A stretch of 64,000 bases of DNA from an uncultured delta proteobacterium. GTDB lineage: Bacteria; Desulfobacterota; Binatia; HRBIN30; BPIQ01. Shown here one piece after another: positions 30,044 through 61,785 of the stretch. The translations under genes and the position numbers were made by a program. The notes below the pieces were generated by a model. That model was not told the origin of the DNA and made no database searches. It worked only from the letters and a program-made list of their open reading frames with translations. The stretch spans positions 1,123,522 to 1,187,521 of the forward strand of contig CAVXGR010000018.1 in NCBI GenBank assembly GCA_963761335.1, read 5' to 3'. Within the stretch, counting starts at the first letter, position 1. Each line of letters starts with the position of its first letter.

Positions 30044-30298
30044 AGGAGGCGTCCCGCCTCCTCGGCGCCCCGGAGGGGCGTAGGCATGTAGCCCCGGGTC
30101 GGAGACCCGGGGAATTGACGGGAATCATGCCCTCGCGCCCCGGAGGGGCGCGGGCGCGTCCCTCGAGGTCGTCGGCTGTCCCGTATGCCGGGTGGGTATG
30201 AGCTCGCCACCAAGCTGCTCGCACCCGGCGACTCCATTGCCTGCGCCCCTGCGGGGCGCTGATCTGGGTCGCCTGGGTACCTTTCCCCGGTTTTCACC

Positions 30299-30584
30299 CG
30301 GGGCTACACGCCCGCGCCCCTCCGGGGCGACACGCCTGGGCCCCTCCGGGCGTAACACGCCCGCGCCCCTCCGGGCGTAACACGCCCGCGCCCCTCCGGG
30401 CGTAACACGCCCGCGCCCCTCCGGGGCGTCACGCCTGGGCCCCTCCGGGGCGACACGCCTGGGCCCCTCCGGGCGTAACACGCCCGCGCCCCTCCGGGCG
30501 TAACACGCCCGCGCCCCTCCGGGGCGTAACACGCCTGCGCCCCTCCGGGGCTACACGCCCGCGCCCCTCCGGGGCGTCACGCCC
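30299..30584. repeat. Tandem array of ~25 bp CACGCCCGCGCCCCTCCGGG(G)CG(TAA) units
   Basis: About 11 adjacent copies with no unique spacers. Confidence 0.85.
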
Positions 30585-30677
30585 GACAAATCCAAAGCTC
30601 CGGGAGGTGGCGAGATGCGGCGTCTACCGCCGTTTCGCTGGCGAAGACACCCTGGCCGCGATAACATCCCGAGTTGC

Positions 30678-33611
30678 ATGAGCTTGACGCGCAGGGTTGC
30701 GGTATCGATCGTCTTGCCGATGTTGCTGGTGCTCGGCTGCGGCAACGGTGATGCTCCGGGAGGAAGCTCGATCAAGTCGGTTCAGCTGGAAGGCGCCGAG
30801 GCGCACTGCGGAACCTCGGTCGGTCCCTGCCGTTGCAATCAGTACTGCCAGAAGACCAACTGCGGCCTCTGCCGCGGCGCCGCCGCGGCGCTCGCGGTCG
30901 AGCCCCCGGCGCAAGGGGCGACTGCCTGCGCCGACGGCCTCGCCGGTGCCTATCCCTGCTACAACGTCGACCTGCTGTCGTTCCTGCCGCTGAGCGCCAT
31001 CGGCGGTGGCATGGGCAACGACATCTGGGGGTGGACGGACCCGTCCACCGGTCACGAGTACGCCCTGATGGGCCGCAACAGCGGCACGTCGATCGTCGAC
31101 ATCACCGATCCGGCGCAGCCGCTGTACCTCGGCGACCTGCCGACGCACAGCATCAACTCCCTCTGGCGCGACATCAAGGTCTACGATCACTACGCCCTGG
31201 TCGTCAGCGAAGCGCCCGACCACGGCATGCAGGTCTTTGACCTCACCGAGCTGCGCACGGTCAGCAATCCGCCGGTGACCTTCTCGGAATCGGCCCACTA
31301 CGCCGGCTTCAGCCATGCCCACAACATCGTCGTCGACGAGGACACCGGCTTCGCCTACGCCGTGGGAACCAGCACCTGCGCCGGCGGTCCGCACGTCGTC
31401 GACGTGCACGATCCGCTGCAGCCGGTGTTTGCCGGCTGCGTCGCCGGCGACGGCTATACCCACGATGCCGAGTGCGTCGTCTATTCGGGACCGGACGTCA
31501 TCCACGCCGGCCAGGAGATCTGCTTCAGCGCCAACGAGGATACCCTCACGGTCGTCGACGTCACCGACAAGCAGACGCCTCTGCAGCTGTCGCGCACCGA
31601 CTACGTGGGACGCGGCTATACGCATCAGTGCTGGCTGACCGATGACCAACATTATCTCCTGCTCGACGACGAGCTCGACGAGCTCAACGACGACCACAAT
31701 ACGCGCACCTACATCTGGGACGTCTCCAACCTGGCGGCGCCGGAGGTGATCGGCACGTACACCTCGCGAAACACCGCCATCGATCACAATCTCTACGTCC
31801 GCGGCGGCTTCGCCTTCGAGGCCGATTATCGCAGCGGCCTGCGCATCCTCGATCTGGACCGGGTGGCGTTCGGCGAGCTGCGCGAGGTGGCCTTCTTCGA
31901 CATCTTCCCGCCCGACGACGAGCCGCAGTTCAGCGGCGCCTGGAGCGTCTATCCGTTCTATCCGAGCGGCGTTGCCGTAGTGAGCGGCATCGAGCAGGGG
32001 CTCTACGTTGTGCGGCCGCATCTGAGCGCCGACCTGCCGACGGCGACCGCACCGCCGTCGCTGACGCCGACGATCAGCGCCACGCCGACACCGACACCGA
32101 CCATCACCTTGACGCCGACGGTCACGCAGACGTTCACGCCGGTGCCCCCGGGAGGCGATCTCGCCCAGGGCCGCCCGGCGACGCAGTCGAGCAGCGGCTT
32201 CGGCGGCAGCGCCGACCGCGCCGTGGACGGCAACACCAGCGGCAACTGGGCGGACAGCTCGCTGAGCCATACCCTCCTGGACGACCAGGCGTGGTGGGAA
32301 GTGGACGTGGGCAGCGTCCAGCCGATTGCCAGCATCGAGGTGTGGAATCGCACCGACTGCTGCAGTGACCGGCTGAGCGATTTCTGGGTGCTGGTGTCGG
32401 ACGATCCGATCGCCTCGGCCGACCTGTCGGCGGCGCGGGCGCAGGCGGGCGTCTCCGCCTACTTCACCGCCGGGCAGGGCGGAACCCCGACGAGCATTTC
32501 CGTCAATCGCACCGGTCGCTACGTGCGCGTGCAGCTGAGCGGCCGCAACTATCTGTCCCTGGCCGAGGTGCGCGTCATTCGCGCCGCGGCGATCACGCCG
32601 ATGTCGCCCACGGCCACCGCGACCGCCGCCGCGACCGGGAACTTGGCCCTCGGCAAGCCGGCGGCACAGTCGTCGATGATCGAGGGCGCCGTCCCCGGGC
32701 GCGCCGTCGACGGCGTCACCGACGGCGGCTGGTCGTCCGGGTCGGTGACCCATACGAACCTGGAAGATCAGCCGTGGTGGAGCGTCGACCTCGGCGCTGT
32801 CGAGCCGATCGCCACCATCGACGTCTGGAACCGCACCGATTGCTGCGCCGATCGGCTGACCAGCTTCTGGGTGCTGGTGTCGGATACGCCTTTCGCCTCA
32901 CCGCAGCTGGACACGGCGCGGGGGCAGGCGGGTGTCTCCGGCTACTTCGTGGCCGGCACGGCGGCAACGCCGACGACCGTGGCGGTGGGACGCAGCGGCC
33001 GCTACGTGCGCGTCCAGCTGGCCGGGCGCAACTATCTCTCGCTGGCCGAGGTGCAGGTGTGGCGCGGCGACGGCACCCCGGGGGTGCCGTCGCCGTCGCC
33101 GTCGCCGTCGCCGACGCCGACGCCGTCGCCGTCGCCGACGCCGACGCCGTCGCCGTCGCCGACGCCGCCTCCGTCGACACCCGACCTGGCGCGCGGTCAG
33201 CCGGCGGTGCAGTCGAGCACCGGCTTCGGCGGCACCGCCGATCGCGCCGCCGACGGCGAGACCAGCGGCGTCTGGGGCTTCGGCTCGGTGAGCCACACAC
33301 TGCTCGAGGCGCAGCCGTGGTGGCAGGTCGACCTCGGAACGTCGCAGGCGATCGGCTCGATCGAGGTGTGGAACCGCACCGATTGCTGCAGCGCGCGGCT
33401 GAGCTCGTTCTACGTGCTGGTCTCCGACGTGCCGTTCGCCTCGTCCGACCTGGCCGCGAGCCTCGCCCAGCCCGGGGTGTCGAGCTATGCCGTGCCCGGC
33501 GAGGGCGGCACCCCGACGGCGATTGCGGTCGGCCACAGCGGCCGCTACGTGCGCGTGCAGCTGTCGGGCACGGACTACCTGTCGCTGGCGGAAGTCGTGG
33601 TCAAGCCCTGA
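30678..33611 (+). CDS. Choice-of-anchor-B/LVIVD-type secreted protein with three F-type (fucose) lectin domains
   Basis: NDIWGWTDP, WRDIKVY and HNLYV motifs; three repeats of H-x26-RTDCCxxR separated by PT/PS linkers. Confidence 0.82.
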   Translation: MSLTRRVAVSIVLPMLLVLGCGNGDAPGGSSIKSVQLEGAEAHCGTSVGPCRCNQYCQKTNCGLCRGAAAALAVEPPAQGATACADGLAGAYPCYNVDLLSFLPLSAIGGGMGNDIWGWTDPSTGHEYALMGRNSGTSIVDITDPAQPLYLGDLPTHSINSLWRDIKVYDHYALVVSEAPDHGMQVFDLTELRTVSNPPVTFSESAHYAGFSHAHNIVVDEDTGFAYAVGTSTCAGGPHVVDVHDPLQPVFAGCVAGDGYTHDAECVVYSGPDVIHAGQEICFSANEDTLTVVDVTDKQTPLQLSRTDYVGRGYTHQCWLTDDQHYLLLDDELDELNDDHNTRTYIWDVSNLAAPEVIGTYTSRNTAIDHNLYVRGGFAFEADYRSGLRILDLDRVAFGELREVAFFDIFPPDDEPQFSGAWSVYPFYPSGVAVVSGIEQGLYVVRPHLSADLPTATAPPSLTPTISATPTPTPTITLTPTVTQTFTPVPPGGDLAQGRPATQSSSGFGGSADRAVDGNTSGNWADSSLSHTLLDDQAWWEVDVGSVQPIASIEVWNRTDCCSDRLSDFWVLVSDDPIASADLSAARAQAGVSAYFTAGQGGTPTSISVNRTGRYVRVQLSGRNYLSLAEVRVIRAAAITPMSPTATATAAATGNLALGKPAAQSSMIEGAVPGRAVDGVTDGGWSSGSVTHTNLEDQPWWSVDLGAVEPIATIDVWNRTDCCADRLTSFWVLVSDTPFASPQLDTARGQAGVSGYFVAGTAATPTTVAVGRSGRYVRVQLAGRNYLSLAEVQVWRGDGTPGVPSPSPSPSPTPTPSPSPTPTPSPSPTPPPSTPDLARGQPAVQSSTGFGGTADRAADGETSGVWGFGSVSHTLLEAQPWWQVDLGTSQAIGSIEVWNRTDCCSARLSSFYVLVSDVPFASSDLAASLAQPGVSSYAVPGEGGTPTAIAVGHSGRYVRVQLSGTDYLSLAEVVVKP

Positions 33612-41135: not shown

Positions 41136-41217
41136 ATTCTGCCCCGATCGTTGATCATCCCGGGTTTTTCAGCCCTGGGATGAGGTTCCGGACGTTCTGC
41201 GCCGCCGCGGGGAGCAC

Positions 41218-41473
41218 GGGCATGTAGCAGCGGGGCTGCACACCACTCGCGACCATTTCTGCGCCCCCGAGAGGGGGCGCGGGCATGTAGCAGCGGGGCT
41301 GCACACCACTCGCGGCCATTTCTGCGCCCTCGAGAGGGGGCGCAGGCACGTAGCAGCGGGAGGGGCTGCACACCACTCGCGACCATTTCTGCGCCCCCGA
41401 GAGGGGGCGCGGGCATGTAGCAGCGGGGCTGCACACCACTCGCGACCATATTCTGCGCCCCCGAGAGGGGCGC
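41218..41473. repeat. Four tandem ~63 bp repeats of the CATGTAG/GCGCCCC family
   Basis: Near-identical units start at 41218, 41281, 41344 and 41411. Confidence 0.85.
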
Positions 41474-41572
41474 GGGCATGTAGCCCCGGGTGTAAACCCG
41501 GGGACCTGTGGGCACGTTCCCCCAGGCGCCCCGGCAGGGGCGCGGGCAGTGGAGTCGTCCCTGACCCCAGCA

Positions 41573-41613: not shown

Positions 41614-42543
<930 letters not shown>

Positions 42544-42559: not shown

Positions 42560-43020
42560 CTCCGTGAACGGTTCGACACGAAGTTCCGCGACTTCAGGCG
42601 GGTCGCCACCGCGCGGCGCGAGAAGGACTTCCCGACCATGGAGCAGATCAAGCACGTGATCACGGAGATGCGGGCAGGCTCCGACATCGAGCGGCGCAAT
42701 CGGGCACTCGTCGCCTTCACCGTGCTGACCGGCGCCCGGGACAGCGCCATCGCGTCGATGCGGCTGAGGCATGTCGACCTCGCCGCCGGCTGCGTCTACC
42801 AGGACGCTCGCCAGGTGAAGACGAAGTTCAGCAAGACCTTCACGACGTACTTCCTGCCCGTGGGCGAAGAGATTCACCAGATCGTCGTTGAATGGGTGAC
42901 CTACCTGCGGCAGACGAAGCTGTGGGGCAACGACGACCCGTTGTTCCCGGCCACCGAGACGGTGGTGGGCGCCAACCGGCAGTTCCAGGCCGCCGGCCTG
43001 AAGCGCCAGAATTGGAACCG
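42560..43020 (+). pseudogene. Tyrosine recombinase fragment
   Basis: RNRALVAFTVLTGARDSAIASMRLRHVD box-I region; no N-terminus and no HxxR/Y C-terminus. Confidence 0.7.
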
Positions 43021-43105
43021 TTCTTTCCAGCAAATACCCTTCAGGACGCTAAAGGGTTACGAATTTCAATCTTTCAAGACACGGTACCGGGCCCCCAGAA
43101 GGCGA

Positions 43106-44146
43106 CTACCGTCGCACAGGCCAGCCCAACGTCAGCCACCCTACCGCACAGAGCATCAGGACCAGGCCCATCAGGCCGACCGGTGAAGCCGCCGGCACCG
43201 GCAGCGGCGGTGGTGTTGCTTCGAAGCCCGTGCTGAACAACCCAACCGTGACTCCGCTTGCGGTGTTGATGACCTTCATCGAGACATCGTCGATGTAGAA
43301 GCCCTGGTGAACGGGGTAGTCGTTGAAGCTGTTCGACCACTTCACGGCCGTGCCCGGCGAGTAAGGGCTCCCGTCGCAATAGTGCTGCTGGTGCACCCAC
43401 ATTACATCCGGGTCCGTTACCGTTATCTCTCCAGGGGTGCCTTCATCGATGACATAGGTCGTCGTCCCGTAGGTCGAGAAGTCGGAGGGCGTGACGTTCG
43501 GATAGATCGACGTCATCTTCACCGTGTGCCAGGTGCCGGCCGCGACCGTCGCCAGGGTGAGATCGGGGAAGTCTTGATTCGAGCAACTATCGGTGGACGA
43601 AAAATGAAAGCGATGAAGTGTGACGTCGGTGGCGGAAGTGGCTGTTATGTAGAGGTTCGGACCTGTACGGTTCGGGTCGACAACATCGCGGTTGCCCTCG
43701 TAGACGTTGATCTGGGAGCCGTCGCCCGGCGCGACCGCCCTGAAGGCGAACGAGATCACCGACTCGTCGCCGGCGGGTGTCACCGGGCTGTTCGCCCCCG
43801 CGCCGAAGGCGCTGGCAGCGTTCGGGGCCCCGACCGTCGCGACGTACGGGGTAAAGGGCGTGCCCGAACCCGGACTGCCGTAGCTCCCGCTGTAGCGCCA
43901 CGACTGCTTTCCGTTGAACGCGTCGCTGTCCGTCACGACGTCGCTGTTGGGGAGGTTGTTTGTGAACCCTTGGCCGACAATACCCGCGTCCCAGCCATTT
44001 TGAAGGCTCAGATTCCCCAGCATGTAGAGCCCGGCCAATCCCCATGCCGGCCCGGTGAGGACCCCGACGAGTGCCGCGACGCTCAGTATCGAGACGACCG
44101 CACTGGCGTACAAGCCACTTCCTGCAGAGAAACGCGCGCTCATCAT
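43106..44146 (-). CDS. Exported protein with a C-terminal IPTL-CTERM-like sorting signal
   Basis: Signal peptide; ends VPAASPVGLMGLVLMLCAVGWLTLGWPVRR. Confidence 0.7.
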   Translation of the reverse strand: MMSARFSAGSGLYASAVVSILSVAALVGVLTGPAWGLAGLYMLGNLSLQNGWDAGIVGQGFTNNLPNSDVVTDSDAFNGKQSWRYSGSYGSPGSGTPFTPYVATVGAPNAASAFGAGANSPVTPAGDESVISFAFRAVAPGDGSQINVYEGNRDVVDPNRTGPNLYITATSATDVTLHRFHFSSTDSCSNQDFPDLTLATVAAGTWHTVKMTSIYPNVTPSDFSTYGTTTYVIDEGTPGEITVTDPDVMWVHQQHYCDGSPYSPGTAVKWSNSFNDYPVHQGFYIDDVSMKVINTASGVTVGLFSTGFEATPPPLPVPAASPVGLMGLVLMLCAVGWLTLGWPVRR

Positions 44147-44499
44147 GTTCCCTCCCCTGGGTTGTCTGGCGCACCATGATGCACGCGGGGATGGGAAAGT
44201 CAAAAAGAAAAGTCAAAAGAACCTTGAAAGACTGCGTGTTTAATCCGCTGTCTGAGCGGAAACGGCAGCCTGCCACTCCAGTTCGGGGATATCCGGCTCG
44301 ACCGGTTTGACCCGTCCACGTATGGCTTTTGAGGTGCCCACCGCGGCTCACGTCAATTACGGAATAGCGTAGGCATCCGTTTCTTCATCAAGCCCACGGC
44401 GAGGGACCTGACCGACCGAGCAAGGAGACGCAAATCCTGAATGTGGCAGCATCGAGTATCCGCGAGCGCAGGGATAGAGGGGGAAGCCCGGAGCTTGAT

Positions 44500-44835
44500 T
44501 AGGTGCGAGGAGTACAAACCCTCCCGCCGCAGCAGTGCCCCGATCGCCCCTGCCGTCGTGCACCGGTCCGCCTCCCGCACGATCCGCCGCTTGTACTCCG
44601 CCGTGAAACGCCGCCGCCGTGCCTTCGCCACCACCTCGGTCTCCGCCGCCGCCGGCCCAGGGGGCTCGCCCGCCGGCGCCGCGGCCGGGGAAACTCCACT
44701 CGCCCTACGGGCTCCTTCCGTTTCCCCGGCCGTCTCACCACCTGCTGCTTCTTCTCCACTGCCTTCATCGTCCATCTTCCCTCACCGCCCCCTACAGTAA
44801 ACTACCCCTACCCAACTGTCTCACCCTCATTGGCA
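44500..44835 (-). mobile_element. Truncated IS3-like element (left end + partial OrfA)
   Basis: RRRFTAEYKRRIVREAD..GALLRREGLYSSHL HTH, cut off after SSHL; TGCCAATGAGGGTGAGACA terminus at 44835. Confidence 0.72.
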
Positions 44836-44929: not shown

Positions 44930-45076
44930 GGGGTCTGAGGGCGAAGCCCCCAGGCGCCGTTTCCTCGCGACACACGTGCGGTGCGGGCAGGCTACGTTGC
45001 GGTGGATGTTCGTGAGGTGGGGCAACTCAGCCCGCGATGTGCCCAGCGCCAGGTGACGTGCGTTTTTCTCCCGTGA
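44930..45076 (+). pseudogene. Internally deleted DGR relic (hairpin fused to RT 3' end)
   Basis: 44930-44972 matches 48554-48596; 44975-45076 matches RT tail 50823-50924. Confidence 0.85.
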
Positions 45077-45353
45077 CCAAGCGTCGAACTGCTTTGGCAG
45101 GAGCCCCGCCAGCCACACCCCAAAGACGGCTACGGGTACTCCCGCTTCTGCGACCTGTACCGAGCGGGACATCTTGGAGCCGGCGCGACGCAGATGGAGC
45201 CGTGCGTTCATCGAGCTGTCGGCCACCGCGCCGGGCTTCCCGTATCCCGAGGAGCCGGCCCGGGCCGCGTCCCGACTTCGACTGAACGTTGTGCCGGCTG
45301 CCACGCATCCAAGACCGCTGGCAAATCTGTCTCATATGTGAGACATCCACAAG

Positions 45354-45671
45354 GTGATCGTCATCGTCGGACCGTGCGGGCGGGAGATATTGACGCTTCC
45401 TGCAGAACTCCGCGGCGATCTGGCGGACGCGCTGGCGCGCCTCGACCTTGGAATGAAACTCTCCATGCCCCTGTCCCGGCCGATGCCGTCCATCGGGCGG
45501 GGCGCGCACGAACTGCGACTGAAGGATCGATCGGGGCAGTACCGAATCCTTTACGTTCTGGCGCGCCCCGGTTTTGTGCACGTGCTCCACGCCTTCAAGA
45601 AGAAAACCCAGGCCACGCCCGCGCGGAACATCGCCATTGCAAGACAACGACTGAGAGAGGTGCAGCCATGA
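45354..45671 (+). CDS. RelE/HigB (Gp49-like) toxin, copy 1
   Basis: ELRLKD.SGQYRILY..LHAFKKKTQATP motif. Confidence 0.85.
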   Translation: MIVIVGPCGREILTLPAELRGDLADALARLDLGMKLSMPLSRPMPSIGRGAHELRLKDRSGQYRILYVLARPGFVHVLHAFKKKTQATPARNIAIARQRLREVQP

Positions 45672-45949
45672 AGAAAACATCGGCGTCGCGGATCGCAAGC
45701 CAGCTCGGCATCCCCAAGAGCCGCGGCATGGAAGCTGTCCTGAAGGCACAGCTCATCGCGGCCGTCTGTCGCGAGGTGGAGCGCCGGCAGCTGACGCACG
45801 CGGAGCTGGCGAGCCGATCGGGCCTGGCGCGTACCACCGTGACCGGGATTCTGTCGGGCAGCTTGCAGAAGGTAACGATCAACCGTGTGCTGAGGCTCGT
45901 CGAAGCGGCGGGCCTGGAGGCGGAGATCAGAGTTCGACGCGCCGCCTGA
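45668..45949 (+). CDS. XRE/HigA-like HTH antitoxin, copy 1
   Basis: LTHAELASRSGLARTTV HTH; ATGA overlap with the toxin gene. Confidence 0.82.
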   Translation: MKKTSASRIASQLGIPKSRGMEAVLKAQLIAAVCREVERRQLTHAELASRSGLARTTVTGILSGSLQKVTINRVLRLVEAAGLEAEIRVRRAA

Positions 45950-46170
45950 GACCTTGGGCAGCACGCCAGGCGAGGGGGCAACATTGACGGCAACTGGGAA
46001 GCCCAGAAAGCAGCCATCCGGGTTTCCAGTCTCGCGGTCACCAGCGCTTCCTTCGAGTACACGGCCGTTTGTTTCAGGCTCGCAACGATGAGGTTCAGCC
46101 GCGGGGCGCCGGAAGCCAGCGCTCGTCCGGCCAGGCGCGATGACAGTAGTCGGCGAGCCTGCGCCTGAAG

Positions 46171-47444: not shown

Positions 47445-48512
47445 ATGGTTGCAGAGCGACCCACGACGACGACACGCCTGCTGGCAATTGCCCTGGCGGC
47501 CACTTCGCTGGTGTGGTTGGCAACGGCTCCGGCCTGGGCGGGGCTCTCGGCCGCGGCGAAGTGCGAGGCGCTGAAGAACAAGGAGGCGGGAAAGTACGCC
47601 TTCTGTCTCGAGAACGCGCAGATGAAGCTGGTGAAGACCAAGGGCGCGTGCTCGGCGACGACGTCGACCACCTGCTACCGGGACGACGAGTGTCCCATGG
47701 GCGAGACGTGCAGCAAGGACACGACCAAGTACGATCAGCTCGTGGGCAAGTGCGACCAGAAGTACTCCGACCACTGGGCGAAATGGGAGCTGAATGCGGG
47801 GGGCAGCTGCCCGACGACCGGGGACGAAGCGAGCGTTCAGGCACAGATCACGACGGACGCGAATCGGACGGCGTGGCAGGTGTCGGGGCAGGGGCGCTTC
47901 GCCGACAACGGGGATGGCACGGTCACGGACAAGCAGACGGGACTGATGTGGGAGAAGAAGGTCGCGCTCGACTCGACGCAGGATTTCCCCAACCTCCAGG
48001 ACGCCGATAACTACTACGAGTGGGCGGGCTACTGCTCGTCGAACACGAGCAAGTACTGCCAGCCAAACACCGCCGCGGCAGCGACCTGTGCGGCGGGCGT
48101 GCAGGGCGACCCGACGGGCTGCGAGGAGTGCACGGGAGGGGATGGGACCTGCACTATCGGGGGCTCCGGGACGACCATCTGGGACTGGCTCAACCAGCTC
48201 AACACCGCCGACTTTGCCGGTTACCACGACTGGCGGGTGCCGGCGCGAAGCGAGCTTGAGTCCATTGTGGACCTGACCGACGCTACACCGCCTGTGGTGG
48301 ATGCCTCGTTCCAAGGGTCGAGCTGTGGCGGAGCATGCACGGACATTGCCGACCCTGCGTGCAGCTGCACGCAGTCGTACTCCTACTGGTCCGCGTCCAG
48401 TTACGCACCCTCCCCGTTCTACGCGTGGGGCGTGTACTTCAGCCTTGGCGGCGTGGGCGCGTACGACGAGGCGTACGGCTTCTACGTGCGTGCAGTGCGG
48501 GGCGGCTCGTGA
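47445..48512 (+). CDS. DGR target protein: secreted Cys-rich protein with a DUF1566/Lcl C-terminal (C-type-lectin-fold) domain
   Basis: Signal peptide; RFADNGDGTVTDKQTGLMWEK, DWRVPARSELESIV and YWSAS..VRAVRGGS motifs; 3' end is the VR. Confidence 0.92.
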   Translation: MVAERPTTTTRLLAIALAATSLVWLATAPAWAGLSAAAKCEALKNKEAGKYAFCLENAQMKLVKTKGACSATTSTTCYRDDECPMGETCSKDTTKYDQLVGKCDQKYSDHWAKWELNAGGSCPTTGDEASVQAQITTDANRTAWQVSGQGRFADNGDGTVTDKQTGLMWEKKVALDSTQDFPNLQDADNYYEWAGYCSSNTSKYCQPNTAAAATCAAGVQGDPTGCEECTGGDGTCTIGGSGTTIWDWLNQLNTADFAGYHDWRVPARSELESIVDLTDATPPVVDASFQGSSCGGACTDIADPACSCTQSYSYWSASSYAPSPFYAWGVYFSLGGVGAYDEAYGFYVRAVRGGS

Positions 48513-48514
48513 TC
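48369..48514 (+). repeat. DGR variable repeat (VR)
   Basis: 146 bp ungapped match to 49187-49332 with 27 mismatches, all opposite TR adenines. Confidence 0.97.
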
Positions 48515-48556
48515 GATCATTGGGCCCTTTGAACCCTTTGATTATTTGACCTGGGG

Positions 48557-48579
48557 GTCTGGGGGCGAAGCCCCCAGAC
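48557..48579 (+). promoter_or_regulatory. DGR target-recognition hairpin/cruciform
   Basis: GTCTGGGGGC-GAA-GCCCCCAGAC: perfect 10 bp stem with a 3 nt GAA loop, ~40 bp after the VR. Confidence 0.85.
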
Positions 48580-48595
48580 GCCGTTCCCTCGCGAC

Positions 48596-49000
48596 ATGGC
48601 CCGAACCGAGCATTTGCCGGTCTACAAGGCGAGCTATGACCTGTGCCTGTACCTTGAGCAGGTCGTGCGCGGCTTCGCCCGCTATCACAAGTACTCCATG
48701 GGACAGGAGCTTCGCGATGGCGCCAGATTCATCTTGAAGCTGATCGTGAGAGCCAATGCGCGGCGGGACAAGGTGCCCGTGCTGCTGCAGATCCGCGAGG
48801 AGCTGGAAGAGCTGAAGGTGCTGCTGCGCCTGTGCCATGATGCCAAGGCGCTTCCCAACTTCAACAGCTTCGAGCACGCCATCTGCCTGGTGACCGACAT
48901 AGCCCGGCAGAACGAAGGTTGGCTGAAGAGCCAACGTCAGGGCCGTGGCCAGAATCGGCACGCGATCCTCGAGGAGGTAGCGAAGCCGAGCGCGCCGTGA
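48596..49000 (+). CDS. avd: DGR accessory variability determinant (Avd-like four-helix bundle)
   Basis: LPVYK..YDL..F.RYHKYSMG.ELR..LRLCHD..GW pattern; lies between the VR and TR. Confidence 0.88.
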   Translation: MARTEHLPVYKASYDLCLYLEQVVRGFARYHKYSMGQELRDGARFILKLIVRANARRDKVPVLLQIREELEELKVLLRLCHDAKALPNFNSFEHAICLVTDIARQNEGWLKSQRQGRGQNRHAILEEVAKPSAP

Positions 49001-49186
49001 TCACGAGGTCCCTCTCCCACCGCAGGCCTCGGCACATGCCGCCCTGCGGTGAAAGCCAAAGCCCTGTGATGGGGCGGAGGCACAAGGAGGCCTTCCCCGG
49101 CCTCGGTCGGGCCAGGCCGCCGGGTCCGTTCCTCCTTTATATGCCAGTGCACTCCAGAGGGGGTTCGGGGACAAGCGGAGAGGGCG

Positions 49187-49332
49187 ACGCAGTCGAACAA
49201 CTACTGGTCCGCGTCCAGTTACGCACCCAACCCGAACAACGCGTGGAACGTGAACTTCAACAATGGCAACGTGAACGCGAACAACAAGACGAACAACAAC
49301 TACGTGCGTGCAGTGCGGGGCGGCTCGTGATC
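49187..49332 (+). ncRNA. DGR template repeat (TR)
   Basis: AAC-rich counterpart of the VR (16 in-frame AAY codons), between avd and the RT gene. Confidence 0.96.
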
Positions 49333-49394
49333 ACGGTCCAACCTTCTGTCGCCCGTGGAGAGTGGCCTGCCGCTCTCCACGGGCAGTCTTCACC

Positions 49395-50924
49395 GTGAGA
49401 GCAGACCTCTACTCGTTCGAGGATCTCTGGCGCCAGTACCGCGCCTGCCGCCGCAACAAACGGAACACGCTCAATCAGCTCCGGTTCGAGATCGACGCGG
49501 AGCGCAATCTTCTCGATCTGCAACGCGAGCTGCGAGGCCACACGTATCAGCCGGGGCCCTCCATCTGCTTTGTGACCGACGGGCCGAAGCCACGCGAGGT
49601 GTTCGCGGCGGATTTCCGCGATCGGATCGTTCACCACCTGCTTGTTTCCCGCCTCGAGGCGATCTTCGAGCCGCGCTTCATTCATGACTCGTACGCGTGC
49701 CGGAAGGGTAAAGGGGTGCTGGCGGCAAGCGATCAGCTGATGGAGTTTATGCGGCGGGTCACGCGCAACGGGCAACGACCCGCGTGGGCGCTGCACCTCG
49801 ACGTGGCCCGGTTCTTCGCCTCGATTGACAAGGAAACGCTGTACCGGATCATCGCCCGGCGCATCCGCGATCCCGAGGTACTATGGCTGACCGGGAGCAT
49901 CCTTTTTCACGATCCAACGACCAACTATCGTTTCAGGCGAGGACCGCGAGGCATCGATCATCCTGGTTCGCTGGGATATCCAGTCCCGTCGCAGAGAAGC
50001 TTGTTCGGTGCGAACAATGAGCGCGGGCTGCCCATCGGCAATCTCACGAGCCAGTTCTGGGCGAACGTGTACCTCAATGAGCTGGACCAGTTCGCGAAGC
50101 GCCGGCTCAGGTGCCGGCACTACGTGCGCTACGTCGATGATCTCGTGTTGCTCGACGAAGACCAAGAGACGCTGCGCGAGTGGCGCGAGCGGATCGGTGA
50201 CTTTCTGCAGCAGGAATTGAAGCTCGCCTTGCGCGAGCCCAAGGCGGAACCAAAGCCCACTCGCAGGGGTATCGAGTTCGTGGGCTGGAAGACCTTCTAC
50301 AGCTACCGCCTGCCGCGCAAGCGAACTCTTGCAAGCTGCGACCGGCGACTGGAGCGATTCGAGCAGAGGGAGGTGCGCAACCTGTGGCGTGGCGCAGCTC
50401 GGTGCATCGCGATCTCTCGACGGGATGGTGGTGGGAAATCTGCGCTCGAGGCGCTCCACGCTACCCTGGCTTCCTACAGCGGTCATCTTCGACACGGTGC
50501 GACATGGGACAGGTGGACGGCTCTCTGGCAGCGGTATCCTTGGCTGGACGCGATCTTCGCCCGCGAGGGATGGGGCGTGAGATTGCGCTGGCCGACCCAG
50601 GCGATCGGGGGACCGCGGTTTGCGCGGCAGTACCGGCGGCTGGTCCGCAAGGTCGGTGAACGCACTCTTGTGTTCTGTCAGGTGGGCACGTTCATCGAGT
50701 TCTACGGTTTGCAGCGCCTGCTTGCCACGGATGTCCTCCGCCTTTCGCCGGCTGCCGTCCCGCGCGGGGGCTTCGGGCTCTGCGTCGGCTTTCCGGCGAA
50801 GATGCGAGTCGAGTATGTCTCCCGTGCGGTGCGCGCAGGCTGCGTTGCGGTGGATGTTCGCGAGGTGGGGCAACTCAGCCCGCGATGTGCCCAGCGCCAG
50901 GTGACGTGCGTTTTTTTTGCGTGA
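49395..50924 (+). CDS. DGR reverse transcriptase with a C-terminal MutS-I-like domain
   Basis: KPREVFAADFRDRIVHH, DSYACRKGKG, GLPIGNLTSQFWANVYL and YVRYVDD motifs. C-terminus LVFCQVGTFIEFY..VGFP..Y..RAVRAG. GTG start chosen downstream of the TR. Confidence 0.93.
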   Translation: MRADLYSFEDLWRQYRACRRNKRNTLNQLRFEIDAERNLLDLQRELRGHTYQPGPSICFVTDGPKPREVFAADFRDRIVHHLLVSRLEAIFEPRFIHDSYACRKGKGVLAASDQLMEFMRRVTRNGQRPAWALHLDVARFFASIDKETLYRIIARRIRDPEVLWLTGSILFHDPTTNYRFRRGPRGIDHPGSLGYPVPSQRSLFGANNERGLPIGNLTSQFWANVYLNELDQFAKRRLRCRHYVRYVDDLVLLDEDQETLREWRERIGDFLQQELKLALREPKAEPKPTRRGIEFVGWKTFYSYRLPRKRTLASCDRRLERFEQREVRNLWRGAARCIAISRRDGGGKSALEALHATLASYSGHLRHGATWDRWTALWQRYPWLDAIFAREGWGVRLRWPTQAIGGPRFARQYRRLVRKVGERTLVFCQVGTFIEFYGLQRLLATDVLRLSPAAVPRGGFGLCVGFPAKMRVEYVSRAVRAGCVAVDVREVGQLSPRCAQRQVTCVFFA

Positions 50925-51201
50925 CCCAGCCTCGAACTGCTTTGGCAGGAGCCCCGCCAGCCACACCCCAAAGACGGCTACGGGTACTCCCGCTTCTGCG
51001 ACCTGTACCGAGCGGGACATCTTGGAGCCGGCGCGACGCAGATGGAGCCGTGCGTTCATCGAGCTGTCGGCCACCGCGCCGGGCTTCCCGTATCCCGAGG
51101 AGCCGGCCCGGGCCGCGTCCCAACTTCGACTGAACGTTGTGCCGGCTGCCACGCATCCAAGACCGCTGGCAAATCTGTCTCATATGTGAGACATCCACAA
51201 G

Positions 51202-51527
51202 GTGATCGTCATCGTCGGAACGTGCGGGCGGGAGATATTGACGTATTGACGCTTCCTGCAGAAGTCCGCGGCGATCTGGCGGACGCGCTGGCGCGCCTCG
51301 ACCTTGGAATGAAACTCTCCATGCCCCTGTCCCGGCCGATGCCGTCCATCGGGCGGGGCGCGCACGAACTGCGACTGAAGGATCGATCCGGGCAGTACCG
51401 AATCCTTTACGTTCTGGCGCGCCCCGGTTTTGTGCACGTGCTCCACGCCTTCAAGAAGAAAACCCAGGCCACGCCCGCGCGGAACATTGCCATTGCAAGA
51501 CAACGACTGAGAGAGGTGCAGCCATGA
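51202..51527 (+). pseudogene. RelE/HigB toxin copy 2, frameshifted
   Basis: 8 bp tandem duplication TATTGACG (51236-51251) relative to copy 1. Confidence 0.8.
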
Positions 51528-51805
51528 AGAAAACATCGGCGTCGCGGATCGCAAGCCAGCTCGGCATCCCCAAGAGCCGGGGCATGGAAGCTGTCCTGAA
51601 GGCACAGCTCATCGCGGCCGTCTGTCGCGAGGTGGAGCGCCGGCAGCTGACGCACGCGGAGCTGGCGAGCCGATCGGGCCTGGGGCGCACCACCGTGACC
51701 GGGATTCTGTCGGGCAGCTTGCAGAAGGTAACGATCAACCGTGTGCTGAGACTCGTCGAAGCGGCGGGCCTGGAGGCGGAGATCAGAGTTCGACGCGCCG
51801 CCTGA
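51524..51805 (+). CDS. XRE/HigA-like antitoxin, copy 2
   Basis: One amino-acid difference from copy 1 (GLGRTT vs GLARTT). Confidence 0.82.
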   Translation: MKKTSASRIASQLGIPKSRGMEAVLKAQLIAAVCREVERRQLTHAELASRSGLGRTTVTGILSGSLQKVTINRVLRLVEAAGLEAEIRVRRAA

Positions 51806-51905
51806 GACCTTGGGCAGCATGCCAGGCGAGGGGGCAACATTGGGGGCAACCCGTCTGGGGCGCTACGCCCATAGCCCGCAAAATCAATGGGTTACGAGGT
51901 CAATG

Positions 51906-52467
51906 CGATTCCCCCCGCCCCTTCGCTCTTCTTCGCTTCGCTCGGAAGAGCTTCGGATGGCATGCCATCCCAGAGCGAAGAAGAGCGAAGGATGCCCTCC
52001 GAAGCTTTAGCGAAGGAGGGAGCCTTGGCGAAGGTTGGGGAGACGCCTCCGAAGCCTTGGCGAAGGAGGGCAGCTCTCACTCTGATCACGCTCACCCTCC
52101 GGACCTTCCCAGCTCTCAGTGGCGGACTGATTGGCGCGGTTGTCGCTGCACCGGACCGCGTGAAGTACGTCTACCTCCTCCGCAGCGTCTCCGTCCCCGC
52201 TCAGCGATACGTCGGTGTTACAGCCGACCTGGGGCAGCGGCTCCGAGCGCACAATAGCGGGGCTTCGCCCCACACGTCGAAGTACAGGCCATGGGAGGTG
52301 GTGACGTTCATTTGCTTTCGAGACGATCGCCGCGCCGTCGAGTTCGAGCGTTACCTGAAGTCTGGATCGGGCATCGCCTTCGCCAGAAAGCGCCTCTGGT
52401 GACGAGGCGCGAGCCCCTGACCGACACCGCGATCCGCTCCGCCAAGCCGCAGGGCAGGGCCTTCAAG
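51906..52467 (+). repeat. Direct repeat copy 2 (att-like tmRNA 3' fragment + GIY-YIG + integrase start)
   Basis: Matches 41977-42543 except for loss of TCCAT and a few SNPs. Confidence 0.92.
52160..52402 (+). CDS. Small GIY-YIG nuclease-family protein, copy 2
   Basis: Same protein as 42236-42478. Confidence 0.88.
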   Translation: MKYVYLLRSVSVPAQRYVGVTADLGQRLRAHNSGASPHTSKYRPWEVVTFICFRDDRRAVEFERYLKSGSGIAFARKRLW

Positions 52468-52790
52468 CTCTTCGACGGCGGCGGCCTCTACCTGGAGGTC
52501 AGCCCCGCCGGCGGCAAGTGGTGGCGCTGGAAGTACCGCCCCGGCGGCCGGGAGAAGCGCCTGTCGCTCCGCAATTCTGCATCGCTCGGTGCGCCGTCTC
52601 CGGCGCGCCGCGGCTCTCGATCCGGCGCAGCACCGCCAGCAGCTCGGGCGCCCTGATCTCGGCGATGGGGCGCTTGCCCATCCACGGGAAGATGTCCCTC
52701 TCGAAACGGCGCAGGATGCGGTCGCCGTGGCTCGCCACCCGGCCGGGCGAGAACCTGGCGTGCCACTCGCGGGCGATGGCCTCGAAGAAA
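52399..52790. pseudogene. Scrambled P4-type integrase remnant
   Basis: Arm-binding domain on + (LTDTAIRSAKP..KLFDGGGLYLEVSPAGGKWWRWKYR); core-binding segment on - (RFERDIFPWMGKRPIAEI..ELLAVLRRIE.RGA.ETAHR). Confidence 0.8.
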
Positions 52791-53052: not shown

Positions 53053-53295
53053 ATGGGAGCCGCGAAGGTCGCGATCACGATAGAAGAGGATCTGCTGAAG
53101 CGGATCGACCAACTGGTGGACCAGAAGAAGTTCGCGAACAGGAGCCGCGCGATTCAGGAGGCGGTTCGAGACAAGCTCGAGCGGCTCGATCGGGGTCGTC
53201 TCGCGCGAGAATGCGCAAAGCTGAGTAAAGGGTCCGAGCAGAGGCTGGCTGACGAGGGGCTGGGGGAGGACCTGAAGGAATGGCCCGAATTCTGA
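53053..53295 (+). CDS. Ribbon-helix-helix antitoxin
   Basis: [21 protein letters not shown]; overlaps the PemK gene. Confidence 0.85.
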
Positions 53296-53621
53296 GGGGG
53301 GATGTGCTCTGGGCCAACCTGGAGCCCACGGTCGGTCGCGAACAGGCCGGCCAGCGGCCCGTGGTCGTGCTGAGCGCGGACGTGTTCAACGAACGGTCGG
53401 GTACAGTGATCGCCATGGCGCTCACGAGTCAGGAACAGCGAGCTGGGTTCCCGCTCACCCACGAGTTGAAGACGGTGAAGATGAAGAAGCGGGCTTGGGT
53501 GAAGATCAGTCAGGTCCGCACACTCTCGACCCAACGGCTCGGCAGGAAGATCGGACGAGTGTTTCCCGAAGAGCTCGATCGGTTGGTCGAGGGGCTCAAC
53601 GAGATCATCGCCATTTCATAG
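53280..53621 (+). CDS. PemK/MazF toxin
   Basis: [27 protein letters not shown]. Confidence 0.92.
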
Positions 53622-56094: not shown

Positions 56095-57120
56095 TTAGTC
56101 ACTCTTGCGCAGATAGGGGGCCAGCTTCTCCGCCAGGACACGAACGTGCGGCTCGTCGAGGATGGTCGCGTGCGAGCCGGGGACCAGGTGCACCTCTACC
56201 GGGCGCGTCGACAGTGCTCCCCACCCCATGTCGTGCGCCGGCGCTCGCAGCAGCCGCCGCGAGCTTCGAAAGAGGACGAGGCGGCTCGAAACCGGGGCCG
56301 GCGTGTAGCGGTAGGTGGCGGCAATGTGCCCCGCTAAGACGCGTTGCAACTGGGCCGGGAACGATGAAACACCGTCGATCAGATCCCCCGCCCCAAGTTC
56401 GGTGCGCACGCCGACGAGGCGCGCCAGCTGCTTGCGCACGACCCGCGCTAGGCGGCGATTCCGCGCCTGCATCTGGACTCCCTCGAGCCGCAGGTAGTCG
56501 CGCAACCAGTACGGCAGCGAGCGCACGAAGTTCACGGCGAAGCGCCAGGCCTCCCACACGCCCCTCTCGCCGGCACCGTCCGGGGCAAAGGCCTCGAGGA
56601 TCGCGACCAAGCCGACCTCGTCGCCGGCGGCCGACAGCTGTCGCGCCATCTCGAAGGCAACCATACCGCCGAAGCAGTAGCCGCCGATGTGATAGGGACC
56701 GCACTCCTGCACCGTACGCATGGCCGCAATGTAATCGCGAGCCATCTCCTCGATGCTGGCGCCGCCACCGGCGGAGTCACCCACGTCGGGCACCTGGAGG
56801 CCGTAGAAGGGCTGGTCGGCACCGAGCGCCTGCGACAGCCTCTGGTAGTCGACGACTCCACCACCGAGCCCGTGGACGCAGAAGAACCGCGGGCGACTGG
56901 TCGTGGTGCTCGCCCGGACGAAGGGCACAAGCACCATCCGTTCGCGAGGCTCCGAGTGTCGATCGAGCAGACGTGCGAGCGACGACACCGTAGTCGCCTC
57001 GATCAACGTCGAAGCGGGCAGCGTAACACCGAACTGCTCCTCGATCTCGATCGTCAGCTCGGCCGCCAGGAGGGAGTCGCCGCCGAGATCGAAGAAGTCG
57101 TCATCCAACCTGATGGTCTG
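56095..57120 (-). pseudogene. NRPS/PKS C-terminal fragment: carrier protein + thioesterase
   Basis: DDFFDLGGDSL and GPYHIGGYCFGG motifs; no convincing start. Confidence 0.78.
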
Positions 57121-57805: not shown

Positions 57806-58265
57806 GAGAGACCTGCCTTATACCGGTCGGGTTCTCCGAAGTCAGCAGCGAGCCCGTTCCTCGAGAGCGACGCCGCTCACCCTCCGTGATGCTTCGGTGG
57901 GACATCCCCCCGCGTTACTTCAACGCTGCAGGAGTCGGGCGACATCCGTCTTCGGGCCAGATCGGATCCCCTCGGCTCGCCGGCCAGCGAACTGTTGTGA
58001 TTTGCCACGCCGTCCCAGACACGCGGGTCGCCCGGCTCGCGCCACAAACTCTGCGCCGCTTCGTCGTCGAGGCTGCGGAATGTCTTGACGGACATTCTCT
58101 CAGTCCTTCAGTCCCGAACTTTTCCTTGAGCACCTGAGCATCGGCCTTGTCCCGCAGCCGAACGGTGTCACGCTTCATCCGGACGGCAGGTTCTGCGGAA
58201 AGGAATGACGCGGGGAGCAAGTCGGGGCGTTTGTGCCAAGCGCGGCTCTTGGGTATTGAAAAGGT

Positions 58266-58514
58266 ATGAAATCGAATGCCAAGTCGAGCATCACTCTTCC
58301 GCCGGCGGAGGTGCGTTTGGTGCAGTCGTTGAAGGAGCGCTTGAAGCTGAAGAGCAACGTCGAGGTTGTGCGCCGTGGACTTCGCCTGCTGCAGGAAACC
58401 ACCGAGCGCCGAGCACTTCGCGACGCGTACCGCGCCGCGTCGCGCGTCACCCGTCGATCGGTGACTCGCGAGATCGAAGAGCTCGATCATCTCTCCGGCG
58501 AGGGCCTCGATTGA
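58266..58514 (+). CDS. Putative antitoxin (RHH-like)
   Basis: KSSITLP..SNVEVVRRGLRLL; stop overlaps the toxin start. Confidence 0.7.
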   Translation: MKSNAKSSITLPPAEVRLVQSLKERLKLKSNVEVVRRGLRLLQETTERRALRDAYRAASRVTRRSVTREIEELDHLSGEGLD

Positions 58515-58858
58515 AGGCGCCGATACGGCACGGAGGGCTCTATCTCGCTGACCTGAATCCGCGCCAGGGCAGCGAACCGGGCAAGGCCAGGCCGGTCCTC
58601 GTGGTTCAGACGGATCTGCTCAACGAAGTGGGCCACCCCTCGACGTGGATCCTTCCCTGCACGACCCGACGCACGGGAGAGAACCTCCTGCGTGTACCGC
58701 TGCCGCGTGGCATCGCGGGCAACACGGCGGATTGCGAGGTCATGATCGACCAGAGTCGCTCGATCGACAATCGGCGCTTTCGAAGAGCACTCGGCAAGAT
58801 GCCGCGGTCGTTGCTGAACGAGGTGAAGCTCAAGCTGCGGCTGCTCGCTGACCTGTAA
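58511..58858 (+). CDS. PemK/MazF toxin
   Basis: LYLADLNPRQGSEPGKARPVLVVQ..DQSRSIDNRR; TTG start. Confidence 0.88.
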   Translation: MKAPIRHGGLYLADLNPRQGSEPGKARPVLVVQTDLLNEVGHPSTWILPCTTRRTGENLLRVPLPRGIAGNTADCEVMIDQSRSIDNRRFRRALGKMPRSLLNEVKLKLRLLADL

Positions 58859-60862: not shown

Positions 60863-60999
60863 CGGTTACGTCCGCTGCGTCCGCTAGTGATCGCGCCCGC
60901 GGCCCAACCGCATTCATCTCGGCCGCGGTGGCCGGACGAACAATTGATCCGTCGAGCTGAACGCCTCGGGACACAAAACATGAGAAAAGGAGAATGGAC

Positions 61000-61785
61000 A
61001 TGACGATTTCGAAGACCAAGCTCTGCCTGGCGGCGTCGCTGCTGCTGTGTGTGACAGCCTCGATGGCCGCGGCAACGACCGACCCGAACAACCTGTGTAC
61101 TTTCAAGCGTCAGAAGGCGTGGACCAAGTACCGTGCCTGCATCGACGCCCCTCTCGCGAAGGCATACAAGCTGGGTGCGTACAACGACATCTACGTGCCG
61201 ACCAACGTGGCGTGGGCCAAATGCCGCCACAGATACTTCAAGGCCTGGCAGAAGTTTCAGACGAGCGCTTCACTGGCAGGGACGGCGTGCGCCGGCGACC
61301 GCTTCACCGACAACGACGACGGGAGTGTGACCGACAATCTGACGCGGTTGACGTGGGAGAAGAAGGACGATGCCGGGGGAACGCACGACAAGGACAATCT
61401 GTACATGTGGAGCACCGGAGCACCGTGGGACGAGACCGGCACCGCATTCACGGATTTCCTGGCAACGCTGAACTCAGCGGCCTTCGCCGGCTCGAACGGC
61501 TGGCGGTTGCCGAGCATCGCCGAGCTGCAGACGATCGTGCAGGACTACGCGTGCTCGGGACCGTGGGGCGAGGCCGGCTGTGTCTGCGCCAGCGATCCAT
61601 GTGTCGATCCGGAGCTGGGAACGATCGACGATCTCGATCTTTACATGTCGTCGAGCACCGATGCCGATTTTTCTGGATCCGACCACGAGATCACCTTCTA
61701 TAACGGCAGCTGGGGGATCCATCTCTTCTGCCCGGACCCCAAGGCCTGCACCTCCAAGGCGATCGGCGTACGCGGCGGGTTCTGA
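61000..61785 (+). CDS. Second DUF1566/Lcl-domain secreted protein (paralog of the DGR target, no VR)
   Basis: RFTDNDDGSVTDNLTRLTWEKK, GWRLPSIAELQTIV and terminal GVRGGF. Confidence 0.85.
   Translation: MTISKTKLCLAASLLLCVTASMAAATTDPNNLCTFKRQKAWTKYRACIDAPLAKAYKLGAYNDIYVPTNVAWAKCRHRYFKAWQKFQTSASLAGTACAGDRFTDNDDGSVTDNLTRLTWEKKDDAGGTHDKDNLYMWSTGAPWDETGTAFTDFLATLNSAAFAGSNGWRLPSIAELQTIVQDYACSGPWGEAGCVCASDPCVDPELGTIDDLDLYMSSSTDADFSGSDHEITFYNGSWGIHLFCPDPKACTSKAIGVRGGF

Follow-up and report, generated by a model that had tools for sequence, protein, structure and literature searches.

The 64,000-nucleotide (nt) stretch of DNA analysed here (the window; contig CAVXGR010000018.1 of assembly GCA_963761335.1, from an uncultured delta proteobacterium of the Binatia) carries at positions 47445 to 50924 a genuine and apparently intact cellular diversity-generating retroelement (DGR). 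It belongs to the type with an accessory variability determinant (Avd) and a MutS-like function and has a DUF1566 target; the kind itself is well known. All features of the cassette lie on the forward (+) strand, in the order target gene with variable repeat (VR), phased repeats, GC hairpin, avd, structured RNA, template repeat (TR) and reverse transcriptase (RT), and the open reading frames (ORFs) of target, Avd and RT are all open and full length by comparison with relatives. Taken jointly, the observations make it very probable that this is a chromosomal DGR with all its parts in place, working through an RNA scaffold, the RT and a MutS-like tail in the manner proposed below. The original prediction had described a complete DGR with the order target-VR-hairpin-avd-TR-RT; order and parts were correct, while two parts had been overlooked, namely that the RT has a MutS-like tail and that a structured RNA precedes the TR. 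Taken simply as a DGR, the element is one more ordinary cellular cassette of the DUF1566 type, and its value lies in the occurrence of the MutS tail and the upstream RNA side by side.

In the proposed mechanism, the transcript would fold from the avd stop codon to the TR, with an upstream strand (48995–49017) pairing on both sides of the TR, to its 3′ end (helix P0) and to the 8 nt directly before it (helix P1), and the TR would be held as a loop on a multi-helix scaffold of about 170 nt. RT and Avd would copy the TR into complementary DNA (cDNA) from the P0 end, misincorporating opposite adenines, and this cDNA would be exchanged for the VR, which ends the target gene and would be marked as recipient by a flank of its own (phased TTTGA repeats and GC hairpin) that is absent from the TR. 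The MutS domain I tail of the RT would bind the densely mismatched cDNA:VR heteroduplex and keep the host MutS from restoring the parental sequence. As a result, as many as 16 NNY codons would vary, and with them the lectin-fold tip of a disulfide-rich, secreted protein, in about 15^16 variants.

Template and variable repeats

The VR (48369–48514) comprises the last 47 codons and the stop codon of the target gene, and the TR (49187–49332) contains 44 adenines, including 16 AAY codons. A repeat search and self-BLAST agree on an ungapped match of 146 nt with 82% identity, in which a mismatch script counts 27 differences, all at TR adenines (12 A>T, 12 A>G and 3 A>C), whereas none of the 102 other TR positions differs; with 44 adenines in 146 nt, the hypergeometric probability of placing all 27 on adenines by chance is 3.5e-18. 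Machine alignment thus agrees on every count with the gap-free, adenine-confined match that had been read by eye from the letters. The differences fall in a mutated zone (TR 49196–49299), where 27 of 39 adenines are altered, and the identical 3′ stretch that follows measures 33 nt rather than the 32 given originally (last mismatch at 48481). A codon count likewise bears out that every AAY codon has changed (16 of 16), mostly to Tyr, Phe, Gly or Ser (Tyr 5, Gly 4, Ser 3, Phe 2, Leu 1, Asp 1); two further codons are altered (AAG>GAG and ACG>GCG). One TR codon, AAG, is able to yield TAG, and the template is therefore not fully stop-proof. No further VR of this TR was found genome-wide when any base was allowed at adenine positions together with up to 12 other changes, and the draft genome (6.26 Mb in 29 contigs) holds one VR, one TR and one DGR-type RT in total.

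Reverse transcriptase and Avd

The RT gene (49395–50924) encodes 509 residues with a Pfam RVT_1 domain and a PHROG RT match at E 5.8e-106, its most likely start being the GTG at 49395 and not a codon within the TR. It carries IGNLTSQ (residues 214–220), the motif that marks DGR RTs, and YVDD (246–249); among 47 aligned sequences, I214 to Q220, Y246, D248 and D249 never vary, and V247 is kept in at least 90%. A profile built from the RT and 46 homologues finds 8ub7_A as its best match in PDB (a 328-residue ‘Reverse transcriptase’, nine entries, E 5.4e-53), which we take to be the BPP-1 bRT, as against E 5e-15 or worse for group II intron RTs and 0.02 or worse for retron RTs. In a FastTree phylogeny of 156 RTs (from 166 loci with an RT match, 10 of which were dropped for having fewer than 280 profile positions in one ORF), the protein stands in an 8-row clade of DGR RTs with support 100, together with Binatia, Dadabacteria, ‘Deltaproteobacteria’ metagenome-assembled genomes and two genomes of its own order. 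Profile and tree therefore both place it, as had been expected, with DGR RTs and not with those of group II introns or retrons. Furthermore, an adenine-biased TR/VR pair of their own is present in 59 of the 80 genomic loci that encode RT relatives.

The avd gene (48596–49000, stop codon at 48998–49000) encodes the accessory variability determinant, a protein of 134 residues that matches Pfam bAvd at 53.2 bits (cut-off 40) and the PHROG ‘Avd protein of DGR’ at E 5.9e-25. Full-length homologues, 66–78% identical, adjoin the TRs of relatives.

A MutS domain I fold at the end of the reverse transcriptase

The RT is about 180 residues longer than the BPP-1 RT, and its last 105 or so residues have the fold of MutS domain I (50613–50918, with Phe433-Ile-Glu435 at 50691–50699). 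A hidden Markov model of the tail (47 homologues), run against the 39,363 six-frame ORFs of the genome, retrieves only itself and the genome’s own MutS (residues 21–122, E 2.7e-7), the G-T-F-I-E-F of the tail aligning with G-D-F-Y-E-L of that MutS, and the full RT profile matches residues 18–119 of Taq MutS in PDB at E 6.8e-6. An AlphaFold2 (AF2) model made from 27 aligned domains has a pLDDT of 87.1 and a pTM of 0.80, and every Foldseek match listed for it is a MutS or MSH domain I (best E 5e-7, TM 0.65–0.78). Phe-x-Glu is the established mismatch-contact motif of MutS; F433 and E435 are each kept in at least 90% of the 47 RTs, and E38 mutants are named in the PDB titles of MutS structures matched by the tail.

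The best 120 RT homologues all have the extension, measuring 466–614 residues with at least 87% query coverage, and 53 of them have a precomputed match to PF01624; among the loci compared, 25 of 80 genomic ones carry the domain (26 in a smaller search space) and none of 80 from viral contigs does, and all its bearers fall in one 58-row clade of the RT tree (support 98, FastTree). Fusions of MutS_I to an RT are rare and already in print: in the available excerpts of the literature, to which all statements on cited papers refer, three related RTs are reported whose C-terminal extension weakly resembles MutS_I, along with 16 DGRs that have a separate small MutS-like (MSL) gene (Wu et al., 2018, Nucleic Acids Research 46:11, PMC5758913).

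As regards function, the tail is most readily seen as a decoy that would shield the mismatched heteroduplex from the host MutS, a reading favoured because knockout of mutS in Bacteroides raises retrohoming 5- to 10-fold (bioRxiv 10.1101/2024.11.15.621889), and a decoy would pay where host MutS depresses homing in this way. There is a real, if less than even, chance that the tail instead promotes integration by finding or stabilising the mismatched heteroduplex of cDNA and target, or is a module for RNA or DNA binding or dimerisation without mismatch specificity. All other MutS domains are missing, and the tail thus cannot signal to MutL; MutS is dispensable in BPP-1 according to the excerpt of Wu et al. 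(2018; PMC5758913); and in four loci (L021, L040, L054 and L058) a free-standing Msl gene upstream of the RT has exchanged the Glu of F-x-E for Gln or His and yet persists. Nevertheless, F/Y-x-E is kept in 22 of 23 aligned fused or frame-shifted tails, which, with its conservation in the 47 RTs, argues for a contact of the mismatch type. With a mismatch-recognition domain fused to an RT, the element makes it possible to examine directly if DGRs bring along a counter of their own to mismatch repair.

The structured RNA between avd and the template repeat

A spacer of 186 nt separates the avd stop codon from the TR and is occupied by a structured RNA (48995–49186) made up of a bridging strand and the helices P2–P5. 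The first part of the bridging strand, at the avd stop (48995–49007), is complementary over 13 contiguous pairs to the TR 3′ end (49324–49336, the 3′ strand of P0); the second part (49010–49017) begins two nt downstream of P0 on the same strand and pairs with 49177–49184 just before the TR (P1). In the spacers of eight relatives RNAalifold finds 44 pairs, 22 of which show compensatory changes, and 92.8% of cells are paired, compared with 81.6% in shuffled alignments (none of 500 reaches the observed value) and 33–50% when the partners are slid. The G-U pairs identify the RNA strand as the TR strand. A covariance model of the spacer RNA scores 108–170 bits at 10 loci, two of them outside the seed. 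No Rfam family matches at gathering score between 40 and 54 kb, and none of the RT-motif families (including RF03022 Phage_DGR and RF03018 RT-15) appears in 48500–49500 at E up to 10, while the positive controls are recovered (BPP-1 at 104.7 bits and ten RT-15 loci).

Helix P0 emerges unprompted when the sequence from the avd stop to the TR end is folded by RNAalifold in nine relatives; 93.8% of its cells pair, as against 17–51% with slid partners, three cells have compensatory changes, and 2 of 500 shuffles reach the score. Two results count against this helix. Within the clade of the window it has only two covarying positions, with one pair broken in L004, and a crude RNAduplex test of complementarity between avd stop and TR 3′ end across 123 loci gives no excess (own −19.9, cross −20.1 kcal/mol). 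As the family-wide test is null, P0 rests on the two alignment-based analyses. The same two-helix bridging layout recurs independently, with stronger covariation, in a second and larger DGR clade (16 loci from Betaproteobacteria and viral contigs).

A related observation concerns Rfam RT-15, which fills the avd-TR spacer in all ten loci tested from this second clade (L044, L052, L055, L059, L063, L069, L100, L121, L148 and L150) at 122–191 bits. In these loci a strand near the 5′ end of the RNA, outside the Rfam model, pairs with the TR 3′ end (93.8% of cells, 10 compensatory cells, none of 500 shuffles), and the alignments suggest that RT-15 RNA may be a DGR priming scaffold. The excerpt of Weinberg et al. 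(2017; PMC5737381) offers a DGR role for RT motifs other than RT-10 as speculation only.

In BPP-1, residues Sp53–56 of the spacer (Sp) RNA pair with TR118–121, next to a pairing of Sp59–70 with avd369–379, and priming occurs from Sp A56 (Handa et al., bioRxiv 10.1101/2023.10.23.563531); the bridging strand of the window mirrors the primer and stop duplexes that cryo-EM has shown in this phage element. Set beside it, the helper RNA of the window, and perhaps also the larger set of RT-15 DGRs, is tentatively read as a circular permutation of the BPP-1 DGR RNA, a proposal with a nearly even chance of being right: scaffold and bridging strand would lie upstream of the TR, and the cDNA would be cis-primed, in a retron-like manner, from A49006 or G49007 at the P0 end by the avd stop. 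If true, the picture of an Sp downstream of the TR, which comes from one phage, would be that of a minority layout, and the minimal RNA for transplanting most DGRs would run from the avd stop through the TR instead of consisting of the TR and its downstream spacer; engineers would learn which RNA segment must accompany the TR into other hosts for directed evolution. The excerpts of Wu et al. (2018), Guo (2011), the Handa preprint and a 2026 preprint on an Escherichia coli DGR, together with literature searches, contain no description of such an upstream layout, which may still have been published. This permuted RNA is the part of the element most worth specialist follow-up.

An unlikely alternative is that the avd-TR RNA serves as a regulatory leader or terminator for avd or the RT, and that the priming sequences lie downstream of the TR, in a hairpin at 49351–49384 and the start of the RT ORF. 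That hairpin (15 of 16 bp, within the 62-nt spacer between TR and RT) folds with a z of −5.0, is equalled by none of 200 shuffles and is unique in the genome; it is lineage-specific, being common to the two closest relatives (L082 and L083) with three compensatory pairs. The Sp RNA of BPP-1 also lies downstream of its TR (Rfam Phage_DGR match, L171 2328–2460), and stem-loops just downstream of the TR are reported for 207 of 278 DGRs (Handa et al.). Nevertheless, the hairpin is absent where the TR abuts the RT (L001–L003 and L005), and across the 113 loci with the order avd-TR-RT the median gap is about 5 nt between TR and RT as against about 125 nt between avd and TR, which leaves most relatives without non-coding room downstream. 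That one upstream strand pairs both TR flanks, with covariation in two clades, also argues for the bridging scaffold.

The flank of the variable repeat

VR and TR flanks diverge at 48515/49333. Directly after the VR (48515–48553) stand the phased motifs CTTTGA, CTTTGA and ATTTGA, spaced 9 and 8 nt apart and absent after the TR; this flank is a candidate recognition element, comparable to an IMH (initiation of mutagenic homing) site, that could tell VR from TR. Among 227 TR/VR pairs from 141 loci (within L001–L170), at least three HTTYR motifs occur within 45 nt after 146 of 227 VRs, compared with 14 of 227 TRs and 106 of 4540 random windows (2.3%), the commonest spacing being 8 nt. At the end of the BPP-1 VR (L171 1745–1772) we read three TGA with spacings of 8 and 7 nt, all altered in the TR. 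Phased repeats of about 8 nt with the core TTTGA, TTTA or TTCA, placed directly 3′ of the VR, are widespread in DGRs, and no description of such a periodicity was found in the excerpts of the DGR literature consulted.

The phased repeats are followed by a GC hairpin or cruciform (48554–48582), folding as a 10-bp stem (48557–48566 with 48570–48579) around a GAA loop; relatives have GC hairpins at the same place. In its available part, Guo (2011) describes the hairpin only, with 7–10 bp, a GRNA loop and a distance of 4–34 nt from the VR, whereas the present loop is GAA instead of a four-nt GRNA and lies 42 nt from the VR.

The target protein

The target gene (47445–48512) encodes 355 residues before its stop codon, comprising a signal-peptide-like N-terminus, a Cys-rich helical domain and a C-terminal Lcl_C/DUF1566 lectin fold that ends in the VR. 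Its start is most likely the ATG at 47445, as originally proposed, because it is preceded at 8 nt by GAGGAGG and agrees with the N-terminus of P0122, a relative with 95% identity. Read from the translation, the N-terminus resembles a Sec signal peptide (47445–47540, MVAERPTTTTRLLAIALAATSLVWLATAPAWA) ending in AWA, with G as the next residue, and has no lipobox cysteine; the protein is thus presumed to be exported.

That the target has a DUF1566 lectin fold, another claim of the original prediction, follows from a Pfam Lcl_C/DUF1566 match over residues 166–360 (E 5.6e-23) and from structural superposition. In VIA-align comparisons of an AF2 model (49 homologues, pLDDT 89.7), the C-terminal domain aligns over 124 residues with that of Legionella Lcl (8q4e_A, Z 11.2), followed by a Bacteroides ovatus fimbrial protein as second-best structural match (4eps_A, Z 8.9), and the DGR variable protein TvpA of Treponema superposes with Z 7.8 (2y3c_A); Foldseek returns weak rows only (best E 0.013). 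The N-terminal helical domain (41–158) has no Pfam match and structurally resembles generic helical bundles. In the 49 homologues, scaffold residues that are coded without adenine (W323, W336, F340, G343, R357, V359 and R360) are invariant or at least 90% conserved, positions coded by AAY have no majority residue, and the common VR consensus ends in ...YVRAVRGGS. With its Pfam match and a lectin-like fold bearing the VR, the protein fits the CLec2-type DGR targets of the Lcl_C/DUF1566 class (category d of Wu et al., 2018).

About ten DUF1566 paralogues, 28–36% identical to the target, are scattered over contigs C7 (three in tandem, at approximately 8.5–11.2 kb), C11 (three), C12 and C13 and the window itself (60994–61785). 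As additional targets they are ruled out, none having a VR that matches the TR; the family appears to be expanded in the genome, with a single member diversified.

Genomic context and activity

Upstream of the cassette lies a transfer-messenger RNA (tmRNA) gene (41614–41997, 155 bits). A 567-nt segment at its 3′ side (41977–42543), consisting of 14 nt of the tmRNA 3′ end followed by a GIY-YIG gene and the N-terminus (Arm domain) of an integrase, is repeated with 98.8% identity 9.9 kb downstream (51906–52467). The marks of an integrative island that targets tmRNA genes are accordingly all present, namely the gene itself, a directly repeated copy of its 3′ end and a tyrosine integrase, in an arrangement that looks like tandem or rearranged islands at ssrA. 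The island is probably immobile, since the integrase survives only as fragments (42638–43186 on the + strand, 52291–52656 on the + strand and 52499–52738 on the − strand). The 34 ORFs examined from 33.8 to 63.7 kb include no match to a phage structural, packaging or lysis PHROG, which sustains the original view of a cellular and not a phage system; phage-type integrase fragments and Gp49-like toxin genes near the element qualify that view. The Gp49/HTH_37 toxin-antitoxin pair and the DUF4926/DUF6883 pair do not occur beside the DGRs of relatives (none of 169 other loci).

That the element has been active, as was also claimed at the outset, is well supported: its ORFs are intact, and VR and TR show no difference outside adenines while nearby duplications have drifted by 1–3%. 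It may be active at present. Several observations weigh against a complete and working cassette. Two family profiles fall short of their thresholds, namely NCBIfam DivGenRetAVD for Avd (E 3.9e-14, 52.8 bits, cut-off 80) and Pfam MutS_I (PF01624) for the last 121 residues of the RT (E 0.0016, 19.1 bits, gathering score 20.6). The island at the tmRNA gene in which the element lies is decayed and rich in toxin-antitoxin genes, and it also holds a gutted second cassette (44930–45994): a 93% copy of the VR-side hairpin and first avd bases (44930–44972) is joined to the last 33 RT codons and the Gp49/HTH_37 toxin-antitoxin pair (44975–45994, 97.3% identical to 50823–51850), about 2.2 kb comprising avd, RNA, TR and most of the RT are missing, and the target side is cut by an IS3-like fragment (44353–44775, − strand; named from reading its translation, with no Pfam match). 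In another assembly, the 95%-identical relative P0122 diverges fully from the target after residue 272 or so and lacks the VR end, which suggests that the cassette can be lost, although a frameshift, an insertion or an assembly artefact may each account for the divergence. Promoter scans near the element stay at chance level, as do terminator scans. Parts of the locus occur in four low-coverage sequencing runs of one study (DNA or guessed DNA, labelled soil or freshwater-sediment metagenomes), whose contigs of 151–613 nt match exactly over 49041–49321 on the TR side and over the VR up to 48398, the VR beyond 48398 being uncovered. None of 40 related genomes carries the cassette at high identity, the best reaching about 70% at the DNA level.

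It is conceivable on these grounds, although rather improbable, that the cassette is a frozen relic which looks whole and no longer homes, its VR recording past activity only; the degraded island with integrase fragments on both strands and an IS3-like fragment, the sister cassette stripped of avd, TR and most of the RT, the VR-less target of the close relative and the want of a promoter-like site above chance would all suit it. Against decay of this kind, target, avd and RT are open and full length in comparison with homologues of 66–78% identity, the catalytic and DGR-specific RT residues are kept, the 102 non-adenine positions of the repeats are unchanged beside neighbouring duplications that have drifted to 97.3% and 98.8%, and no damage is seen in the RNA helices, the VR flank or the hairpin. 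The notion that there is no DGR at all, and that an ordinary segmental duplication of the gene’s 3′ end happens to lie beside an unrelated retron or group II intron RT, can draw on the top NCBIfam model for the RT being group_II_RT_mat (E 5.3e-30, yet only 104.7 bits against a cut-off of 300) with no DGR RT model among the NCBIfam matches, and is refuted practically beyond doubt by differences confined to the adenines of one copy, an Avd between the repeats, an RT profile that fits DGR-type RTs far better than those of group II introns or retrons, and the TR/VR pairs that relatives have of their own.

Comparison with known systems

The closest published counterparts of the MutS-tailed, apparently intact cellular DGR described here are the MutS_I/MSL systems (‘Architecture D’) in the excerpt of Wu et al. 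(2018; PMC5758913), which likewise combine an Avd-containing DGR with an accessory mismatch-recognition module that is a MutS domain I. In comparison with the MutS_I RTs of that report (PMC5758913), the present fusion is backed by a fold model and a conserved F-x-E and belongs to a large, mostly metagenomic clade. The DGR of Legionella pneumophila (LdtA; PMC5758913) is similar in being cellular, in its DUF1566-class (CLec2) target with a C-terminal VR and presumed or known export, in its avd and MutS-like function, and further in its GC hairpin after the VR and its residence in a genomic island (PMC5758913). Nevertheless, LdtA is a surface lipoprotein, whereas the present target has no lipobox cysteine; the Legionella MSL is a separate gene, while here it is fused to the RT (PMC5758913); and the target has an additional Cys-rich helical N-domain without a Pfam match that sets it apart from LdtA.

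The Bacteroides DGRs with Msl (Macadangdang et al., 2024; 10.1101/2024.11.15.621889) are also cellular, combine Avd with a MutS-like factor and diversify surface proteins at tips with a lectin fold. In them, Msl exists as a protein of its own, and what is diversified are the tip subunits of pili (10.1101/2024.11.15.621889), and the present element differs further in coming from a high-GC (65% GC) soil or sediment bacterium.

The BPP-1 DGR (mtd-avd-TR-brt, AY029185.2) shares with the element its gene order, adenine mutagenesis, a GC hairpin after the VR and the distinction between VR- and TR-specific 3′ flanks; in addition, one RNA strand pairs both TR flanks in BPP-1 as well (Handa, 10.1101/2023.10.23.563531). 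In contrast, BPP-1 is a phage tail-fibre system whose RT is 29.7% identical and has no MutS-I tail, and its TR follows directly after avd, with a 144-nt Sp RNA (Rfam Phage_DGR) between TR and brt, whereas in the present element avd and TR stand 186 nt apart, with structured RNA filling the gap, and the TR is followed by only 62 nt. Rfam RT-15 (RF03018) provides the nearer likeness for the RNA, being a structured RNA of about 190 nt in the avd-TR spacer with a bridging strand, a closing helix and internal hairpins; nevertheless, the RNA of the window does not match RT-15, and the blocks of conserved sequence differ. Judged by its layout, it appears to work like the Rfam DGR RNAs without being a member of them.

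Other features of the window

Toxin-antitoxin genes continue beyond the island with an RHH/MazF pair (53053–53621) and a second MazF-like domain in a 217-residue ORF (58205–58858). GC-rich repeat arrays with units of about 24–25 nt and 63–67 nt occur at 30268–30583 and 41195–41512, one of them directly upstream of the tmRNA gene, and dispersed palindromic elements of about 58 nt (GCCCCGGAGGGGCG... type) lie near 28318, 30056, 33862, 41448 and 59256; repeats and palindromes together look like a REP-like (repetitive extragenic palindromic) family of the genome. An ORF of 998 residues (30615–33611, + strand) contains three internal repeats of about 300 nt that are 66–72% identical, and a run of 12-nt repeats of the GCCGTCGCCGAC type (32111–33436, 33074–33188). 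On the opposite strand, an ORF with phosphopantetheine-binding and thioesterase domains (56095–57108, −) is probably the end of a non-ribosomal peptide synthetase or polyketide synthase gene.

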